Origin: a virus | Taxonomy: Duplodnaviria; Caudoviricetes | Direction: 5' to 3' (one strand) | IMG/VR virus record: IMGVR_UViG_3300050119_000254 | Span: 1-52,593 of that record | DNA length: 52,593 nt | Shown here: positions 3,222-51,149 of the stretch, in pieces | How the letters are laid out: each line of letters starts with the position of its first letter | Position numbering within the stretch: position 1 is the first letter of the stretch | Translations under genes and position numbers: made by a program | The notes under the pieces: generated by a model | What the model was told of the DNA's origin: nothing | What the model saw: the letters and a program-made list of their open reading frames with translations, nothing else | The model's database searches: none

Positions 3222-5552
3222 ATGAACGTCGCCCACTATTACGCGCCCAGAATTCGCCGCCGTGCACGGGACCGGAGGATCGCTGATCAAAAGGAAGCTG
3301 TTCAGGAGGTTCAAGCGGAGGAGTCGCTGATCATTCAACCGGAGTGGCAGTTCTTTGTTCACGGCAAACCGGCCACAATTCAGATCAACGAGAGCTACCA
3401 AGTAGCCGGTAGGCAGCTACCGACGATGTTGGGCGAGTGCTCGATGCCGGTCGCCGTCGTCCTGCAACGATTCGGTGACTTGTCCGGCCAGCTACCATGG
3501 TTGAATGAAGAGGTGTCTAGCTGGGTGCGCGAGTCAAGCATGCAGGTATACTTGAATCCGGACCATCCAGATCATATCTGGGCGATGGAGAGCTTGCACG
3601 ACTGCCTGATCCAACATGGGTGGACTAACACTGTGCAAGAAAGCTTCAAATGGAGAAGCTTCAAATGGAGATTGGACGAGCCTGCCGATGATTATTATTA
3701 CTGTAACTATAAGCAATATATTGTCACCGTGTGCAAGTCCAGAGTATGTGATAGGTGGATATTGTGTGTAAGTTTATGTGATCGTCGTTGTACGCGGATA
3801 AGCCCCACAATCGTGGATGACTTGGTTTTCGACACTTTAGAGGACGCGCAACAGTCAGCCGAGGCAACCATTTTAGCGGATGAGTCAGACCGGCGCGATG
3901 CACGTAAGATATCCACCGATCAAGCTGATCTTCCGGAGTCGTTGCAGGAGGCGCGCTGGGCCAGCATGGGACGCAGTTGGACAACGCAGATAGGTAATTG
4001 TGGCCTTTGGGTTAGTCCTGCGGACAGTTTATCACGCGCCGGTGAAGAAGGAGCGAAAGGCTGGCGCTGGACCTTATATCAAGGGCATGATCATCGGTGG
4101 ACTGACGACGCACGAACTGGCATTGAACCGACTGTTGATCAAGCTAAGGAAGCCGCCGTTATGGCGTATCGTCAGATGGGTCAGGACGCCACTTCACGCC
4201 TCGATCTTCTGGAAGCTGTGCAGCTATCGTGGAGGAAGGAAGATGATGAATGGAGAGGCTTCAACAGCCGGTACACCGCCTACATCAGGAAAATTGATGG
4301 AGGCTACATCGACCATCCCGGCATGCAGTGGAAATGGTCACTATTTCGCGCCAGAATCGAAACGTTGATCGAGCAGAACTTTGCTAGAACTTTTGATGAT
4401 GCTAAGGCCGCCGTGATGGCGTCGATCAACGCTGATGCATGGGTGCGCAGCCCTAATCATCCTGATATTGATGATCTTCCGGAATCCACTAGCTGGAACT
4501 GGCTCGGCTTCTCCGATGCTGGATTTTGTGGACACGATAAGAGGTTCAAGTTTATAGCTTATGTGGACCAGGTTATCGGCACAAGCCACCCGGAGTTCGG
4601 AAGATGGAAGTGGTCTGCCAGCTCCCATGACGAGTCGATGTTTGGGGAGGGATATTGTGATAACAGTAGGGAAGCTAAAAAAGCGGTGGAAGCATTTGTT
4701 CGAGATTGTTCGAAGAGTGGAGGGGATCTTGACCTTCCGGAGTCGCAGCAGCCCATCCAGGCGCTCAGCGAGGTATCTTTCCGCCGTCTCATGCAATATA
4801 CGCAGGCCAATGGGCGATATAAGGCGGGCGGAATGCGCCGCGTGGCTGGGAAGTGGATTTACGACCCCACCGTGGCGGGCCGGATCGAGAATTCCCGGTT
4901 CGTCCTGACCAATCCGCCGCGCATCAGGATCGATACTGACGGCTACGCGATCATCAATTACTCGTTCAAGTCCCGATCCGACCGATGCACCTCCGGATTA
5001 AGAGCGCGCGGTTACGTCAAGTTCATCACCGGCGACAAGCGCGCTAAATATCAATTCGGCCAGAAGGTAATGGTGGGCTGCAGCTGTGCCGATTTTAAAT
5101 ATCGTCAGGCATTCGTGCTATCGAAGATGGGGGCGTCACATACTCCTACTGGGGCTGGAGGCGAAGCTACCAACACTCCACCGGTGATCACGAACCCACA
5201 TATGCTACCGTCACTGTGCAAGCACGGCGTCGCGGTAGCTGCTTTTGTGACGAAGAATGTGAAGGATTTTGAGCAGCAAGTTCGGGATATGAAGCGCCAG
5301 TCGAAGGTTGAACCTATTGCTCCCGGTAAGTCTCCAATCGTGAAACCTGATGATAAGGTCAGCAAACCGGAAATTACTCCAAAGCCTAGCAAGCCTAAAG
5401 ACAAGAACAAGAAACCGTTGAACGTGCCGGACGTTGATAAGAAGGTCATGGATCGCAAGGCAAGAGAGGCGGCGGAGCCGCCCGGTGGCGAGGAGTCAGA
5501 GGCCACCCCACGGGATAAAGATAGAGACGGACAAAGCGATAGCGGTCGGTAA
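3222..5552 (+). CDS. modular DLPES polyprotein: four Trp-rich modules, SWIM-like Zn finger, Lys/Pro tail
   Basis: DLPES x3 plus DLLEA; CSCADF...LCKH motif; CTAAGTA 6 nt before ATG. Confidence 0.75.
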   Translation: MNVAHYYAPRIRRRARDRRIADQKEAVQEVQAEESLIIQPEWQFFVHGKPATIQINESYQVAGRQLPTMLGECSMPVAVVLQRFGDLSGQLPWLNEEVSSWVRESSMQVYLNPDHPDHIWAMESLHDCLIQHGWTNTVQESFKWRSFKWRLDEPADDYYYCNYKQYIVTVCKSRVCDRWILCVSLCDRRCTRISPTIVDDLVFDTLEDAQQSAEATILADESDRRDARKISTDQADLPESLQEARWASMGRSWTTQIGNCGLWVSPADSLSRAGEEGAKGWRWTLYQGHDHRWTDDARTGIEPTVDQAKEAAVMAYRQMGQDATSRLDLLEAVQLSWRKEDDEWRGFNSRYTAYIRKIDGGYIDHPGMQWKWSLFRARIETLIEQNFARTFDDAKAAVMASINADAWVRSPNHPDIDDLPESTSWNWLGFSDAGFCGHDKRFKFIAYVDQVIGTSHPEFGRWKWSASSHDESMFGEGYCDNSREAKKAVEAFVRDCSKSGGDLDLPESQQPIQALSEVSFRRLMQYTQANGRYKAGGMRRVAGKWIYDPTVAGRIENSRFVLTNPPRIRIDTDGYAIINYSFKSRSDRCTSGLRARGYVKFITGDKRAKYQFGQKVMVGCSCADFKYRQAFVLSKMGASHTPTGAGGEATNTPPVITNPHMLPSLCKHGVAVAAFVTKNVKDFEQQVRDMKRQSKVEPIAPGKSPIVKPDDKVSKPEITPKPSKPKDKNKKPLNVPDVDKKVMDRKAREAAEPPGGEESEATPRDKDRDGQSDSGR

Positions 5553-5565
5553 CATTCATTCCGTC

Positions 5566-7071
5566 ATGTTGGTGTTACCTCGAAACTGCACGGTGTGCAA
5601 ACTTTCATTTATGCCGTCAGGTCCAAGAGCTGGCGCACTGAAACGGTGCGACAGTTGCCGGACATATTCAAAGAGAAAGTGGCAGGAGAATGGCGACAAA
5701 TATAAGTGTCGCAACAATTTGGAGCGCGCGGAGCATAGCAGATTGAGAATGGTAAGGGCTAGAATACGAAATGAGCAGTTGCTTCTCGCAACATATGGGG
5801 TCGACGGCAGTTATGTGTGCCCATGCGGTTTCAGATCTCCGATCAAGCGCCAGTTTTCGTTTCATCATGTTGACCCGTCAATTAAAACGTGTGAGATCAC
5901 GCGTAAATTGCGTGCATTGAGCTTCAGCATAGACCTACTCGAATCCGAGGGCGTCATAATGAAGTGTGAGAACTGCCACCGAGTGGAACACGGTAACGGC
6001 GGGGCAAAGAGGACTATGTGGAAGCGCCTTCAAGACGCTGGGGTAGATCTAATATGCTGCATGTGCGAGGGCAGATTCGACCCGTGCGTTTACGACTTCC
6101 ACCATCTGGGCAACAAGCGTTTCAACGTCAGTCAGACTAATTGGAAGCTTGATAATATGTTACCAGAGCTGCGGAAATGCGTGATCGTGTGTGCCAGGTG
6201 CCATCGAGCCATCGATGCTGGAGTGCCTTGCCCATCAACGTTGACCGTAGGACAGCAGATCGATCAGCGACGAGTTGTATGCCATCAACGCAAGGTTCGC
6301 AACGCTGATGAACCAGCCAGCAGGTTGACGCATCCGCAGCTATTTGATAGGCCATTGGGTGACTTCATGCTGCAAAAGGAGCCTTATTCGACAGAGCTTA
6401 AGGAGTTCATCGAGCGCCGCGATTGGACCCAGCGAGTGGGCAACACCCCAAGATGGTGCTTCACAGCCCGGATTGATGGTGTGTTAGCCGGTGTCATCAT
6501 GATTGGTCAACCGCCCGGCCACACGACTTTGTTCAAGAACGACGCGGATTATCACGACGCCCAAGCCGTTATTCAGCGTGGGGCGTCCGCGTCGTTTGGT
6601 CACCGTAATCTCGGCTCCAAGCTGATCATGTGGTCGATTCGTTGGATGGTAAGGAACACCGAGAAGCGCACGTTTGTCGGATACGCGGACCCGGAAGCTG
6701 GTGAGCGTGGTCGAATCTATGCGGCTTGCAACTTCCGACACATCATTGGAGATTTCGGAGCTAAAATTTGCCTTCAACACCCAGACGTGAATGATGGTCA
6801 ACCATTCTCGCCATCATACTTGTACCACTGGCGGCGGATTAAGGAACATCTGATGCATTTGAGACTATGGAAAACCGAGTATTCGGTTGGTGGCGTCCCG
6901 AAGTCTCTGATGGAGCGCTGTCATCGACACAACAAACGGATTATGCATCAAGCCACAAGGGTTCGCACATCCTCGAAGAGGAAGTGGGTGCTGGTGGCGG
7001 CGCCCAACAAGCGTGAACTAAAGCGTCTGCAAAGCGAGCTGCTAGCATTGCGTCAAGATACCGTCCCGTAA
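5566..7071 (+). CDS. tandem HNH endonuclease domains fused to a Mom-like (GNAT) DNA-modification domain
   Basis: FHHVDP..CENCHR and DFHH..CARCHR; C-terminal WCFTAR..QRGAS..YADPEAGERGRIYAACNF. Confidence 0.75.
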   Translation: MLVLPRNCTVCKLSFMPSGPRAGALKRCDSCRTYSKRKWQENGDKYKCRNNLERAEHSRLRMVRARIRNEQLLLATYGVDGSYVCPCGFRSPIKRQFSFHHVDPSIKTCEITRKLRALSFSIDLLESEGVIMKCENCHRVEHGNGGAKRTMWKRLQDAGVDLICCMCEGRFDPCVYDFHHLGNKRFNVSQTNWKLDNMLPELRKCVIVCARCHRAIDAGVPCPSTLTVGQQIDQRRVVCHQRKVRNADEPASRLTHPQLFDRPLGDFMLQKEPYSTELKEFIERRDWTQRVGNTPRWCFTARIDGVLAGVIMIGQPPGHTTLFKNDADYHDAQAVIQRGASASFGHRNLGSKLIMWSIRWMVRNTEKRTFVGYADPEAGERGRIYAACNFRHIIGDFGAKICLQHPDVNDGQPFSPSYLYHWRRIKEHLMHLRLWKTEYSVGGVPKSLMERCHRHNKRIMHQATRVRTSSKRKWVLVAAPNKRELKRLQSELLALRQDTVP

Positions 7072-23912: not shown

Positions 23913-24716
23913 ATGGATCATCCCCATTGTCATCAGCGTCGCATCCGGGACTCTCTGGAAGCTCAGGACCGGATAGAGCACCCCGAGCTCTTTGATCGCC
24001 CGATCCAAGACTACCTGCTTGCGCATGAGCGGCATTCCGCTGACATCGGACACCATATCTCCAAGTACGAATGGATCGGCACGGTCGGGACGTTTCCGAG
24101 ATGGTGCTTCACCGCAAGATTGGACGGAGTCATTGGCGGGGCCGTGTTGCTCAATCTCCCCAATGCGTTCTCGAAGCTGCTTGGTGACGGCACCAAGCCG
24201 ATGGAGTGCCTGATCCAGCGCGGCGCCTCGGCCTCGTTCGGCCACCCGCATCTGGCCAGTAAGCTGATCATGTGGTCGATCCGATGGATGGTGGCGAACA
24301 CCGATAAGCGAATCTTTTACGGGTACTCAGACGAGCGGGCGGGGGAGCGTGGCATCATCTACTCGGCCTGCAACTTTCAATGCTTGGGAGGAGGGTTCGG
24401 GGCAGCCGCCATGTATCGTCACCACACCTGGTCGGCTGGTAAGGAGTTCTGCGCCCATTCACTGCGCAGGACTGGAGTGCTCAAAAAATGGATGAAGGAG
24501 CGCGGGATGCCGTGGCTCCCCGAGTACGCGCTGCCTAACGGGTTCAAGAACTTGGCAACCTTACCTGTCTCGATTAAGGAGGCGTGGTACCGGTGGGGCG
24601 ATGCGATCGTCAAGGAGTCCGAGAAGATTAAGATCCCCACCAAGGTCAAATGGGTGATGGTGCTGGGCCGGGACCGCCGTGAGACTAAGCAGTTACGGGC
24701 ACGGATGAAGCTATGA
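23913..24716 (+). CDS. Mom-like adenine-modification (GNAT) protein
   Basis: YEWIG, QRGASASFGHPHLASKLI, YSDERAGERGIIYSACNF. Confidence 0.75.
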   Translation: MDHPHCHQRRIRDSLEAQDRIEHPELFDRPIQDYLLAHERHSADIGHHISKYEWIGTVGTFPRWCFTARLDGVIGGAVLLNLPNAFSKLLGDGTKPMECLIQRGASASFGHPHLASKLIMWSIRWMVANTDKRIFYGYSDERAGERGIIYSACNFQCLGGGFGAAAMYRHHTWSAGKEFCAHSLRRTGVLKKWMKERGMPWLPEYALPNGFKNLATLPVSIKEAWYRWGDAIVKESEKIKIPTKVKWVMVLGRDRRETKQLRARMKL

Positions 24717-29589: not shown

Positions 29590-30135
29590 GTGAACCCATT
29601 CGATTTCGCTCAATTACTGGAATCCGGTGACAAGTCATATAGTTGCACAATGTTAATGATGCCGGAAGAGGTTTGCCGGATCATCCAGCAAGTTCAGGAC
29701 GATATTGACGAAGATGATCTTGCTGGCGACGGGTTGGAGACGGAATATCACACGACAATCATGTACGGAACGCATACCGACGACCTTGACGAGATCAAGG
29801 AGGCACTGCGGTCAACCGGCATTAAGGAAGTAAGGTTCAAGATCGGCGACCTGACCAGCTTTCCGCCGTCCGTTTACTCGGATGGCGCTTCGGTCCTCAA
29901 ATATGACGTGGAGAGCGACGACCTGAACGAGCTCCACGAAGCTCTGGCCAAGCTTAAGTGCACGGAATCGTTTAAAAATTATCACGCGCATTGTACAGTC
30001 GCGTATGTCGATAGTGGTGTGGTCGACCGTTACACCGGCAAACCTTTCCCGAAGCGCAGGGAGTTGACATCCGATCAAGTTATGTTTTCAACGTCCGACC
30101 GCAAAAAGACGACGTTCAAGCTGTCCGACCCATGA
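29590..30135 (+). CDS. 2H phosphodiesterase, Acb1/T4 gp57B-like, with putative capsid-targeting leader
   Basis: two HxT motifs (YHTTIMYG, AHCTVAY); leader MNPFDFAQLLE. Confidence 0.75.
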   Translation: MNPFDFAQLLESGDKSYSCTMLMMPEEVCRIIQQVQDDIDEDDLAGDGLETEYHTTIMYGTHTDDLDEIKEALRSTGIKEVRFKIGDLTSFPPSVYSDGASVLKYDVESDDLNELHEALAKLKCTESFKNYHAHCTVAYVDSGVVDRYTGKPFPKRRELTSDQVMFSTSDRKKTTFKLSDP

Positions 30136-30904: not shown

Positions 30905-30929
30905 TCACATGCTTTTACTGATCATCATC

Positions 30930-32179
30930 AAACTAGAAACAAATCATTGATGTGCCGAGGTCGTCAAATCATATACATTCTTTAGGCCAGTGATCGCAGC
31001 ATTCAAATATCGGCTCTACCTCAATGTTGATCAGCGCATCGCGCTGGCCCAGCACTTTGGCTGTGTCCGGTGGGTGTACAACTGGGCGCTCGCTAAGAAG
31101 TCCACCGCATGGAAAGACGAAAAGAAAACGATTTCACGGTTCGATCTCAGTGCCGAGCTACCAAAATTGAAGCGTGCCGAAGGCACGGAGTGGCTGGGCG
31201 AGGTCACCGCCCAATGCCTCCAGCAGTCGTTACGGTGCCTTGATCAGGCATACCAACACTTCTTCAAGGACGGTCGTGGGTTTCCGAAGTTCAAGCGCAA
31301 AGATGGTTGCCAATCGTGCCAGTTCCCCCAAGGCGTGAAGACTGATTTTGAAGATGATCGATTGACGTTCCCACACATCGGTTCGGTGAGAGCAGTGTTC
31401 GACCGCCGGTTTCATGGCAAGATCAAGACCACAACGGTCTCAAAGACATCCACTGGTAAGTACTTCGCATCGATCACCGTTGACACCGGTGTGGACGTTC
31501 CCGAAACGGAGCCGTACTCGATGCATTCATCCGTGGGCGTCGATCTTGGTCTCACACACTTTGCCACGCTCTCCACCGGAGAGAAAATCGACAATCCACG
31601 TCTAGCGCGCAAGGCCAAGCAGGCGTTGGCACGCGCCCAACGTCGTTTATCTCGTTGTAAGGCCGGTTCCAAGAACCGCGCGAAGCGGAAGCTGAGGGTG
31701 GCGCGCATTAGTGAGCGCGTCGTTAATCAGCGACAAGACTTTCTTCATCAGTTATCCACGAGGTTGATTCGCGAGAATCAAGCGATCTGCCTTGAGACGC
31801 TCAGCGTCGAGAACATGAAGAAGAACCGTTGCCTCGCGTTTAGCGTGAGCGACGTGGGCTGGTCCACTTTTGTGGACCTATTGAAGTACAAAGCCATCAA
31901 ATACGGTAAAACCATATTGAGAATTGGACGGTTCGAGCCGTCGTCCAAACAGTGCTCATGCGGTGTCGTGAACCACGAACTGACGCTCCGCGATAGAACA
32001 TGGACGTGCAGGTCATGTGATGTCACGCACGATCGTGACGTGCTGGCGGCCCAGAACATACGCCGAATGGCGTTCGACAACTTAGTAGGGCAGGATATGC
32101 CCGAACTTAACGCCTGCCGAGATTCCGCCATAGCGGGGTCGATGAAACAGGAAGTATCAAACCAGACCAGATACAAATC
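30930..32179 (+). mobile_element. tnpB-only (IS1341-like) element flanked by ATCATC(ATC) direct repeats
   Basis: no tnpA; ATCATCATC at 30921-30929 and 32177-32185. Confidence 0.75.
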
Positions 32180-32273
32180 ATCATCGTTTGTTGCGGCGGC
32201 CACGGGCTGTGGCGCGGATGGGGTTATGGTAATGGTGGGTTGCTGGGTTTGCTGCTCATTGTGCTGCTTCTGA
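30990..32273 (+). CDS. tnpB: TnpB RNA-guided endonuclease
   Basis: AFKYRLY HTH, GVDLG, ICLETL, Zn finger CSC..CRSC, HDRD.LAA.NI; RuvC D-E-D intact. Confidence 0.95.
   Translation: MIAAFKYRLYLNVDQRIALAQHFGCVRWVYNWALAKKSTAWKDEKKTISRFDLSAELPKLKRAEGTEWLGEVTAQCLQQSLRCLDQAYQHFFKDGRGFPKFKRKDGCQSCQFPQGVKTDFEDDRLTFPHIGSVRAVFDRRFHGKIKTTTVSKTSTGKYFASITVDTGVDVPETEPYSMHSSVGVDLGLTHFATLSTGEKIDNPRLARKAKQALARAQRRLSRCKAGSKNRAKRKLRVARISERVVNQRQDFLHQLSTRLIRENQAICLETLSVENMKKNRCLAFSVSDVGWSTFVDLLKYKAIKYGKTILRIGRFEPSSKQCSCGVVNHELTLRDRTWTCRSCDVTHDRDVLAAQNIRRMAFDNLVGQDMPELNACRDSAIAGSMKQEVSNQTRYKSSSFVAAATGCGADGVMVMVGCWVCCSLCCF
32082..32179 (+). ncRNA. putative omega/reRNA 3' scaffold (5' boundary unknown)
   Basis: overlaps the tnpB 3' end; near-identical copy at 49007-49099 with a compensatory stem change. 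Confidence 0.65.
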
Positions 32274-38304: not shown

Positions 38305-38601
38305 TTAATTTAGTAAACGGTTGACCAGCGATTCCGGGAGATCCTGATCAGTTGATGTCGGTTGCACTGGTTTACCATCAACGATTTCACAACGGCGACC
38401 ACGGATGTAACAACGCTTGGTGGTGATGCTTCCTCCCACCCTGATGGTGAATTGCGCCCTGACCTCACCCTCTGCCCTGATGGCGCCCTTGAACCTTATC
38501 CGGGCGACCTCAATGGTCAGGTTATTGAGGTCCGCTGGTAATGTACCGGTATAGTAACATTGGGCGTTGACGTCTTTGGCGGTGATGGTGAGATCGGACA
38601 T
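38305..38601 (-). CDS. stand-alone beta-helix module with DLPESLVNRLLN tail
   Basis: paralog of the last module of 14775-16043. Confidence 0.7.
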   Translation of the reverse strand: MSDLTITAKDVNAQCYYTGTLPADLNNLTIEVARIRFKGAIRAEGEVRAQFTIRVGGSITTKRCYIRGRRCEIVDGKPVQPTSTDQDLPESLVNRLLN

Positions 38602-38923: not shown

Positions 38924-39029
38924 TGTGGCGGGCGGGGATCGAACCCGCGCGAGTGAAGTGGCTTATGTTCCACCCATTAATCGGCAGCAGCCGCGCCGCC
39001 CATTGCGTTTACCATTACGCCACCGCCAC
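38924..39029 (-). tRNA. atypical tRNA-like RNA (anticodon not assignable)
   Basis: acceptor stem GTGGCGG/CCGCCAC, D arm GCGT-AATGGTAA-ACGC, T arm GCGGG-TTCGATC-CCCGC; ~55 nt non-canonical middle. Confidence 0.65.
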
Positions 39030-48725: not shown

Positions 48726-49518
48726 CTAAATTTCGTAATCAGGATCGGGCCACACAACGTCCGGAATCTTTAGTGGGGACCGGCGACACGACCCGCAGGC
48801 GCCGCATGGCTTGCCAACTTCCAGAGGCCGTTCACAGCTGAACGTCAGAATGGCCAGTTCGCCCAAATCGTCGGCGATCTCCTGTTTGGACGTCTTGAGG
48901 AGTGGGAATGCCAGCTTGGGCAGCGTTGCACCGCAGATCCCTTGCAACGCCTCCCACACCTTGCGGATGTCGTCGATATAGGATACGGCATCGTCGTTTA
49001 TCACATGATTTGTCTCTGGTTTGAGACTTCCTGCTTCATCGACCCCGCTATGGCGGAATCTCGGCAGGCGTTAAGTTCGGGCGAATCCCGCCCTACTAAA
49101 AAATATCTAGCATTATCAGCGATAATGTTACCCTCAATTACAACGCGCGCCTAGATGTTGCAACGAGATTGTATCGTATACAACCTTAAGAGAAGCCGGT
49201 CACATATCCGATGGCCAACTGGTCATAACCATCGGGTAAGAACACTCCGGCCAGCATCCACACCGGAACCTGAGCAAGGTCCACCAATAATCTGGCGTTG
49301 CCAAAGGCCCCGAACGAGATCAACTCTTGGCGATAGGTAAAATGATATGGTTTGAAGTGCGCCAGCAATTTGTTGATGGCGGCTCGCTCGCTTTCCAATC
49401 TGTGTGGGGGAGCCGAATATTCGACATAGTAAGCCGACACCTCATCTCCACCTCTTAACAGCTTCTGGATCAGATAGGTTGAATCAAGTCCTCCACTCCA
49501 CAGCACGGCGGTCTTCAT
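48726..49518 (-). pseudogene. queC: QueC-like PP-loop ATPase interrupted by a 199-bp insertion
   Basis: LWSGGLDST; C-terminal SC..P....CGACGSC; GYV|INDDAVSY fuses in frame when the insert is removed. Confidence 0.8.
49007..49199 (-). mobile_element. non-coding mini-element carrying the TnpB element 3' end, flanked by 6-bp ATGTGA repeats
   Basis: 49007-49099 matches 32082-32179; TCACAT at 49001-49006 and 49200-49205. Confidence 0.85.
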
Positions 49519-49533
49519 GCTGGGCAAGAATGC

Positions 49534-50849: not shown

Positions 50850-51149
50850 ATGTTTGAGGAATTCAACACTTTCGCATCGCAGTGGACGACGCCAGACGGC
50901 CAGAAGCCAGAAGTCAACGCCGATTGCGCACATTTTATGCAAGAACAAATCAAAGTAATGTCACAAACTTGGAACATCAGTCTCACTCAACCGCAGGACG
51001 AATCCAAAGGTCGCAAGTGGGCTCTCAACCGTGAGATTACGGTTTGCGCCGAAGACGTTCACGGCGCCATCAAGATCGCGGAGCGTGAGTATCCGGATGG
51101 CATCATCCATAAGGTGCAGCGCGCCCAATCAATTCACTTCTTCTCCTAG
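50850..51149 (+). CDS. hypothetical protein
   Basis: ORF in operon. Confidence 0.5.
   Translation: MFEEFNTFASQWTTPDGQKPEVNADCAHFMQEQIKVMSQTWNISLTQPQDESKGRKWALNREITVCAEDVHGAIKIAEREYPDGIIHKVQRAQSIHFFS

Follow-up and report, generated by a model that had tools for sequence, protein, structure and literature searches.

The window (the whole stretch of DNA analysed, 52,593 nt in length) contains a gene for a QueC-like PP-loop ATPase, interrupted by a 199-nt insert without genes of its own. We consider this insert, with a probability of roughly 70%, to be a PATE/MITE-like deletion derivative of an ISDra2-like, tnpB-only element family in T4-like peat phages. The mini element, as we call it, would consist of a left end (LE) of ~75-79 nt followed by the 3'-terminal ~120 nt of a tnpB element, and these would amount to the full omegaRNA scaffold. 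The features at this locus, in window positions, are:

49005..49203, minus strand: the 199-nt insert (mini element), its phase set by the RE end ...ACAAATCAT
49005..49124, minus strand: RE module of ~120 nt, the putative omegaRNA scaffold, from a covariance model match (68 bits, E 2.8e-14) and its fold
49125..49198, minus strand: LE module with the hairpin TTGTAT-acg-ATACAA; the same LE, 99% identical, lies at G001:3524-3669 in a second contig
49199..49203, minus strand: GTGAC, either a TAM-like pentamer bordering the insert on its left or the start of the LE itself; ATGAC is at the same place in the G001 copy (L180)
49000..49004, minus strand: GTGAT, a TAM-like pentamer directly 3' of the RE end, lying within the opening codons (GTG ATA) of the C-terminal QueC fragment
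49186..49527, minus strand: N-terminal fragment of the QueC-like gene, 113 aa, from its WSGGLDS motif, Pfam QueC (E 6e-4) and homologues
48726..49004, minus strand: C-terminal fragment of the QueC-like gene, 92 aa, with a GTG start at the junction, from Pfam QueC (E 9.4e-5) and alignment

The window is a 52.6-kb viral contig with a CheckV completeness of 23%. Its proteins matched the Pfam families of the Gp23 major capsid protein, prohead protease, gp32-like, RecA/UvsX-like and T4 baseplate proteins, and its source is, judged by its genes, a T4-like phage. The sequencing runs that best matched the window were peat metagenomes, and none of those listed was an RNA run. A degenerate RE pattern led to G001, a second T4-like contig (45.4 kb, portal Gp20) with a GC content of 54.9% vs 55.0% in the window; outside the elements, the two share no DNA. 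Profile searches for Y1 TnpA (PF01797, with controls positive in 6 of 14 genomes) and for serine recombinase (PF00239) found neither in these two phage contigs, which are fragments (23% and 31% complete).

On the minus strand, positions 49005-49099 aligned to the tnpB 3' end at 32082-32181 with 94% identity over 85 nt, or 89% over 100 columns when the loop indel is included, and six substitutions and one 5-nt indel were counted, in line with the "about six" and the 5-bp indel of the original prediction. Weaker DNA similarity reaches ~49130, across a hairpin that is present in both copies with different sequences (ACGCC/GGCGT vs CATTATC/GATAATG). A relic TnpB C-terminal frame, lacking a start, runs uninterrupted over 49 codons of the insert (..IIADNARYFLVGRDSPELNACRDSAIAGSMKQEVSNQRQIM-stop), where TnpB reads ..LAAQNIRRMAFDNLVGQDMPELNACRDS.. 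Because this frame is open and the DNA similarity extends to ~49130, ~120-135 nt of the insert come from the 3' end of a tnpB element, a length matching that of the ISDra2-type reRNA scaffold (~150 nt including the guide; PMC8612924), and the remaining ~75 nt are a different LE. The left ~100 nt had been described as unrelated to the tnpB left end and as containing hairpins; they indeed showed no match to that end, and the named hairpins were present in the fold. The insert contains no protein-coding gene, and no ORF of at least 40 aa was found on the element strand besides the relic frame. The earlier view of the insert as a non-coding derivative of the TnpB element family is thereby supported. 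The hairpins of its LE (TTGTAT/ATACAA) and RE (GTCTC/GAGAC) have unlike stems and, as ssDNA, fold no better than shuffles (z-scores -0.37 and -0.29). A third z-score in this end-folding test was -1.37, and the full-length tnpB element has an LE that does not fold (+1.59). No full-length element carrying the LE of the mini element was found, and the LE search of viral contigs matched only G001.

The RE module contains, in order, the hairpin CATTATC/GATAATG, SL1 (GGGCG/CGCCC), a long-range CCTG/CAGG helix, an inner hairpin, a terminal hairpin (GTCTC/GAGAC) and the tail AAATCAT. The compensatory change noted earlier in SL1 (GGGCA-ggata-TGCCC vs GGGCG-ggatt-CGCCC) was confirmed, and a second compensatory pair, absent from the original prediction, was found in the terminal stem (GTATC..GATAC vs GTCTC..GAGAC). 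Four of the six RE substitutions make up these two pairs, one falls in a loop, and one changes a C.A mismatch of the long-range helix to C-G; the 5-nt indel is located in the loop of the terminal stem. When six random substitutions were placed on the 97-nt RE with its 22 pairs, at least two compensatory pairs with no broken pair arose in 80 of 1,000,000 simulated trials.

This architecture was also found in more distant members of the family. From TnpB relatives at ≤52% identity, 22 distinct RE sequences were taken by regular expression; four with large insertions were left out, and the other 18 were aligned with the two window copies (20 sequences). The consensus fold includes SL1, a long-range CYTG/CARG helix, an inner hairpin, a terminal hairpin and the tail TARTTCAY, with double changes in 12 of 24 predicted pairs, and the flanks of the relatives diverge directly 3' of the tail. 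Both window copies match this architecture, and their ..AAATCAT aligns with the tail TARTTCAY, which places the RE ends at 49005 and 32181. For the insert, the end is fixed by this alignment together with three copies that diverge directly after TCAT. When the two phage contigs (98 kb together) were searched with a covariance model of the family, exactly four copies were identified: the mini element (68 bits), G001 at ~20.3 kb (60.4 bits), the tnpB RE (58.5 bits) and G001 at ~3.5 kb (40.6 bits). A weak model match at 50949-51070 (E 0.12) was taken as noise. Taken together, these data support the retention of the whole family-conserved omegaRNA scaffold in the insert under structural constraint.

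In Rfam, only a tRNA reached the gathering score, and nothing relevant appeared at E up to 10. The tRNA model was matched end to end (44.8 bits) over the 106 nt of 38924-39029 on the minus strand, ~35 nt longer than the 71-position model, and ARAGORN made no tRNA call there. The extra length may reflect an insertion or intron in a tRNA gene.

The full-length member of the family in the window lies 17 kb from the insert:

30952..32181, plus strand: tnpB-only element (variant A), with a short LE, tnpB and RE/omegaRNA at ~32060-32181 (model 58.5 bits)
30947..30951, plus strand: TTGAT, the sequence of the ISDra2 TAM, directly 5' of the LE of variant A
30927..30947, plus strand: degenerate remnant of an RE terminus (ATCAAACTAGAAACAAATCAT) abutting TTGAT, 90% identical over 20 nt

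Its TnpB (30990-32180) matched the Pfam families HTH_OrfB_IS605, OrfB_IS605 and Cas12f1-like_TNB (E 5e-18, 6e-31 and 1e-18, respectively) and the solved ISDra2 TnpB sequences (E 2.5e-73); its GVDLG, LE and HDRD motifs align with theirs. This TnpB is, as far as its sequence tells, intact and ISDra2-like, with the RuvC D-E-D residues present. The ORF (30990-32273, plus strand) has no stop within the element and runs 92 nt past the RE into the flank, giving 427 aa with a Cys/Gly-rich tail. A second copy of variant A, in the sequencing run X1, has the sequence in common from 30946 on and a different upstream flank. The 21-nt RE remnant to the left of TTGAT suggests a tandem insertion beside an older, mostly deleted element. 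An empty tnpB site, sought through the neighbouring GNAT gene, was not found. Among genome, viral and metagenome contigs, no TnpB relative exceeded 52% identity, and no close full-length copy with DNA was recovered. The phage-like metagenome contig L099 encodes a TnpB of 50% identity. There the RE ends ..ATAAGTCAT and the LE has only a few bases; the RE is followed by 45 nt that duplicate the beginning of the downstream gene and recur 106 nt on (1673-1717 and 1779-1823). Just upstream of the tnpB locus in the window, an ORF at 29590-30135 (plus strand) shows similarity to the 2'-5' RNA ligase and Acb1 (anti-CBASS) families.

The gene that received the mini element is split in two. QueC-family similarity is found in both halves, and the SGGxDS PP-loop is present as WSGGLDS in the N half. 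The Pfam matches are weak and cover the family ends, at 19.8 bits for the N half (under the 22-bit cut-off) and 22.4 bits for the C half. With the N half as tblastn query, 191 phage records were matched, labelled QueC-like or hypothetical and all below 60% identity. The insert supplies the final TGFS and the stop codon of the N fragment (49186-49527). Removal of the 199 nt had been said to restore the reading frame, and it does, with ..AIGYV joined to INDDAVSY; four homologues are uninterrupted at that point. These homologues (P0001-P0003 and the QueC-like protein of Salmonella phage heyday) read contiguously (G/A)Y-x-x-x-DD(A/D)-x-(S/G/H), and the Y-to-DD spacing is three residues in all four full-length sequences. 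Relatives of the N half were not found in viral contigs, blastn of the locus against phage records gave no match, and no empty QueC site was found at the DNA level. Separate X1 contigs enter the insert by 30 nt from either side, so both QueC/insert junctions are real, and among the joints listed for the reads of X1 and X2, none skips the 199 nt. The two halves may be the remains of a dead gene, or may be made as separate chains, with the GTG at the junction as the second start. The same phage encodes two proteins resembling the Mom family (DNA modification) at 5434-7071 and 23913-24716 on the plus strand.

Further copies of the element were found in G001, in protein records and in the X1 depth. 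The copy at G001:3524-3669 is 99% identical to insert positions 2-147 and lacks the 3' end; ..CTACGCA-ATGAC stands before it, and it breaks off after GCCTGCCGAGATT. The copy at G001:20333-20432 (L179) contains only the RE, with 91% identity, and is followed by CGTCCTGACCCG; its inner-hairpin sequence differs, and its terminal stem is half compensated (GTCTC/GATAC). A convergent phage gene of 191 aa takes its stop codon from the last bases of this RE-only copy (L179 2066-2068), and the element has therefore replaced the native 3' end of that gene. Among the three records added by protein searches, P0005 is a TnpB 88% identical to that of the window whose C-terminus encodes a mini-type RE, and P0125 is an internally deleted TnpB with an RE. 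P0124, on the same 46.5-kb contig as P0005, is a phage gene fused to ..MTSRASNWDLP-IADNARYFLVGRDSP..QRQII-stop. It matches a translated X1 contig that diverges from the window at 49124, exactly the RE module being in common. The loose end of X1 at 49124 had been taken for another tnpB variant (variant B), a reading that was dropped because P0124 joins a phage gene to a further RE copy. No uninterrupted homologue of the N-terminal part of P0124 was found by tblastn against the window and G001.

In X1, the word depth of the bin holding the insert was 53.1, vs 10.5 and 8.9 in the bins beside it, an excess of about five-fold; the tnpB bins had depths of 27-30 vs ~9-12. If the excess over the insert is confined to its 199 nt, it would correspond, as a rough inference, to ~140-fold depth. 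One X1 contig of phage-like depth (10.8) has the RE end joined directly to window position 38342 on the opposite strand. The 70 nt of window 38342-38412 (plus strand), inside the minus-strand ORF 38305-38601, recur in two other X1 contigs (A>G at 38377), in one of them directly beside the RE end. The joint points to a copy in a homologue or paralogue of this small ORF. Exact searches with an RE 26-mer in viral contigs and an RE 28-mer in metagenome contigs gave no matches, and a search of viral contigs with an LE 30-mer and the RE-terminal pattern matched only G001. Since the insert occurs in multiple copies, it is supported as mobile or recently mobile.

These observations bear on two other readings of what the insert is. 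It could be a decaying relic, that is, a dead fragment of a TnpB element in a dispensable QueC-like gene, with an RNA that TnpB does not use and with conservation that reflects recent copying. The split of the QueC-like gene and the lack of a promoter-like site would fit such a relic, as would G001, where one truncated copy and one LE-less copy indicate that family members decay, and the RE modules, whose copies are 97-99% alike and hence young. Against it, four of the six substitutions between the window copies are compensatory, the differing inner hairpin of the RE-only copy in G001 can still pair by our own reading, and the part retained in all copies is the scaffold rather than a random piece. 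We therefore regard the relic as unlikely. The other reading concerns RNA-level removal, in which the insert would act as an intron-like mini-IStron whose splicing restores the QueC mRNA. The insert does lie in sense orientation within the gene, its removal restores the frame, and IStrons are described in bioRxiv 10.1101/2023.11.20.567912 as group I introns combined with TnpB/omegaRNA ends. However, no intron or ribozyme family was matched at E up to 10 over 48850-49350, where the best Rfam matches were unrelated small RNAs (E 0.11-9.8, none at the gathering score). The left ~79 nt are also too short for a group I core. Splicing of this kind thus seems highly improbable, and we retain the gene-less deletion derivative as the preferred reading.

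The junctions of the mini element do not follow a simple pattern. The perfect 6-nt repeat ATGTGA reported to flank the insert was verified, as TCACAT on the plus strand at 49001-49006 and 49200-49205, and it overlaps the pentamers GTGAC (left) and GTGAT (right) that bracket the insert. The LE sequence common to the window and the truncated G001 copy starts at TGAC (49202), preceded by G vs A, and three RE copies end at TCAT (49005) in different contexts. Because the common LE starts at TGAC and the RE ends at TCAT, the element is at most 198 nt long vs the 199-nt gap in QueC, and at least 1 nt of the gap is therefore not element; if RTGAC is a TAM, the common element is 194 nt. RTGAC is found 5' of the LE in two defined and two loosely defined contexts, the latter being the ATGAC upstream of the RE-only G001 copy and of the P0124/X1 copy, with loosely defined left boundaries. 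An alternative TAM, the TAT of the left flank GGATAT, had been picked by eye from a related subfamily and was dropped, as the common sequence in the truncated G001 copy starts at TGAC. The bases right after TCAT differ among copies (G, C, C, T). Within 5 nt 3' of the RE, NTGAY is found in the mini element, the RE-only G001 copy (+5), the X1 joint (+3) and the remnant at 30947 (0); at the X1 joint it is, by comparison with the window, native target sequence. In variant A and P0125, the RE is not followed by NTGAY. Variant A looks canonical, with TTGAT directly before the LE and no repeat beyond AT. In PMC13565253, IS200/IS605 elements are described as making no target duplications. Of the atypical mechanism put forward in the original prediction, the repeat is real and canonical scarless IS200/IS605 insertion does not account for it neatly, whereas a true duplication is not proven by the one complete copy. 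The 6-nt repeat would reflect TAM-like pentamers on both sides, arising either from duplication of a target motif or from flank bases carried along.

One tentative reading, possible in our view, is a true non-canonical insertion next to NTGA(Y) with 4-6 nt duplicated, which could have come about through imprecise work of TnpA, through filling in of a staggered break, or through template switching or microhomology recombination by T4-like replication. The perfect repeat speaks for it, as do the common LE start at TGAC, with G vs A before it, and the RE end at TCAT in three contexts. The X1 joint adds to this, since it places the RE end at 38342 with a flank that begins TCCTGA, and the uninterrupted homologue in the window has GGAGA, which is not a TAM, before 38342; NTGAY within 5 nt of the RE in the four cases above points the same way. 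However, there is only one complete copy with both flanks, the left and right bases of the RE-only G001 copy form no clean repeat, variant A looks canonical (TTGAT|LE), and IS200/IS605 elements are described as duplication-free in PMC13565253. A canonical TnpA insertion with a trivial repeat appears somewhat unlikely, and could have occurred by two routes. The mobile unit could end 4-5 nt past TCAT at the TAM-like GTGA(T), having entered 3' of GTGA(C), in which case the restored gene would read GYVTNDD or GYVINDD, both in frame. Alternatively, the LE could begin at GTGAC with a polymorphic first base, the extra matches being due to chance. In keeping with a canonical insertion, every phase of the 199-nt unit restores the frame, the residue at that position being I, M, T or N in the homologues; the end of P0124 (..QRQII-stop) is what an RE likewise followed by N-TGA would give; and variant A has a proper TTGAT TAM. 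The variable bases after TCAT and the native target sequence in the X1 joint argue against it, and the second route requires the terminal base itself to be mismatched in a copy with 99% identity over the rest.

The scaffold of the mini element is conserved and the TnpB of the window is intact, which makes the use of a putative omegaRNA in trans by TnpB plausible. We infer that read-through transcription of the QueC-like gene would yield a precursor RNA; the promoter scan in and near the insert gave no promoter-like sites. A TnpB from elsewhere in the phage (30990-32180, or a close variant such as P0005) would trim and bind this RNA, and the guide would be the 16-20 nt after ...AAATCAT (GTGATAAACGACGATG...). 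In Karvelis et al. 2021 (PMC8612924), the ISDra2 reRNA is ~150 nt long with a 16-nt guide derived from the flank, and the TAM is TTGAT. By this anatomy, the guide is predicted as follows:

48989..49004, minus strand: predicted 16-nt guide of the mini omegaRNA

The predicted guide is unique in the window at up to three mismatches. The complex would cleave any copy of the locus that has lost the element by excision (GTGAC plus guide match), and recombination proteins of the phage would then restore the element by copying; the RecA/UvsX-like and gp32-like genes of the window count in favour of such a recombination-copying model. Movement to new sites would need recombination, or a transposase in trans, which was not found in the two phage contigs. 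The excision product (GTGAC + GTGATAAACG..) is TAM-like, and the intact gene reads GATAT + GTGATAAACG.., unlike TTGAT or RTGAC, so that a TnpB with an ISDra2-like TAM should cut only excision products. At this site, the system would hence provide restorative homing at most, provided that the TAM of the TnpB is ISDra2-like. The concept of homing between co-infecting phages is set out in PMC13565253. Neither is a guide-only element acted on in trans new as an idea, since Meers et al. 2023 (PMC10055086) already state for PATEs that they often encode omegaRNAs needing TnpB in trans.

A broader reading, speculative and in our view distinctly improbable, is that tnpB elements and omegaRNA-only satellites spread in these T4-like phages without TnpA, through template-switching repair near NTGA(Y). 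Breaks made by TnpB or by others and repaired in recombination-dependent replication would then leave TAM-flanked junctions. If this were true, each satellite would be an extra guide for one phage TnpB, and multi-locus RNA-guided homing or exclusion would operate in a lytic phage. Our preferred reading is narrower, and the mini element as it stands appears to be a well-documented but ordinary non-autonomous IS605-family element. If its RNA is used by the phage TnpB, one RNA-guided nuclease would be supplied by dispersed guide-only satellites in a lytic phage genome, which would parallel in phages the proposal made for PATEs of bacteria. Of greater interest is the junction anomaly: in most of the copies seen, a TAM-like motif follows the RE within a few bases, and the QueC site has the 6-nt repeat. 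The anomaly is real, and can be read as duplication, as carried flank bases or as chance. Upheld over many copies, it would imply that the DNA enters by a route other than textbook scarless peel-and-paste transposition.

Among known systems, PATEs as presented in PMC10055086 resemble the mini element most directly, since they have no ORF, are multi-copy, have an end module in common with full-length tnpB elements, and carry an omegaRNA scaffold for which TnpB would be needed in trans; a PATE with IStron ends is described in bioRxiv 10.1101/2023.11.20.567912. Unlike PATEs, the mini element resides in T4-like genomes of lytic type, has an LE unrelated to that of the co-resident tnpB element, weak end hairpins and a 6-nt repeat with TAM-like pentamers on both sides, and no TnpA was found in the two contigs. 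ISDra2 (PMC8612924; structures 8bf8, 8exa and 8h1j) is similar in its TnpB (E 2.5e-73, D-E-D motifs), in TTGAT before the full-length LE, and in a scaffold that overlaps the tnpB 3' end with the flank as guide. In contrast to ISDra2, no tnpA partner was found for the window family in the two contigs, and RTGAC, not TTGAT, stands before the mini lineage; the RE end ..AAATCAT aligns with ..TARTTCAY of the relatives. As in MITEs, a short internal-deletion derivative seemingly outnumbers its parent, the excess depth being greater for the insert than for tnpB, but the mini element is without terminal inverted repeats and has asymmetric LE and RE modules. The free-standing homing endonuclease genes of T-even phages (seg/mob), reviewed in PMC13565253, are likewise selfish, occur in a T4-like gene, turn the host gene into two ORFs, and would spread or persist by break-induced recombination. 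The mini element differs from them in that the RNA-guided nuclease is encoded elsewhere, and the insert would be the guide scaffold only.
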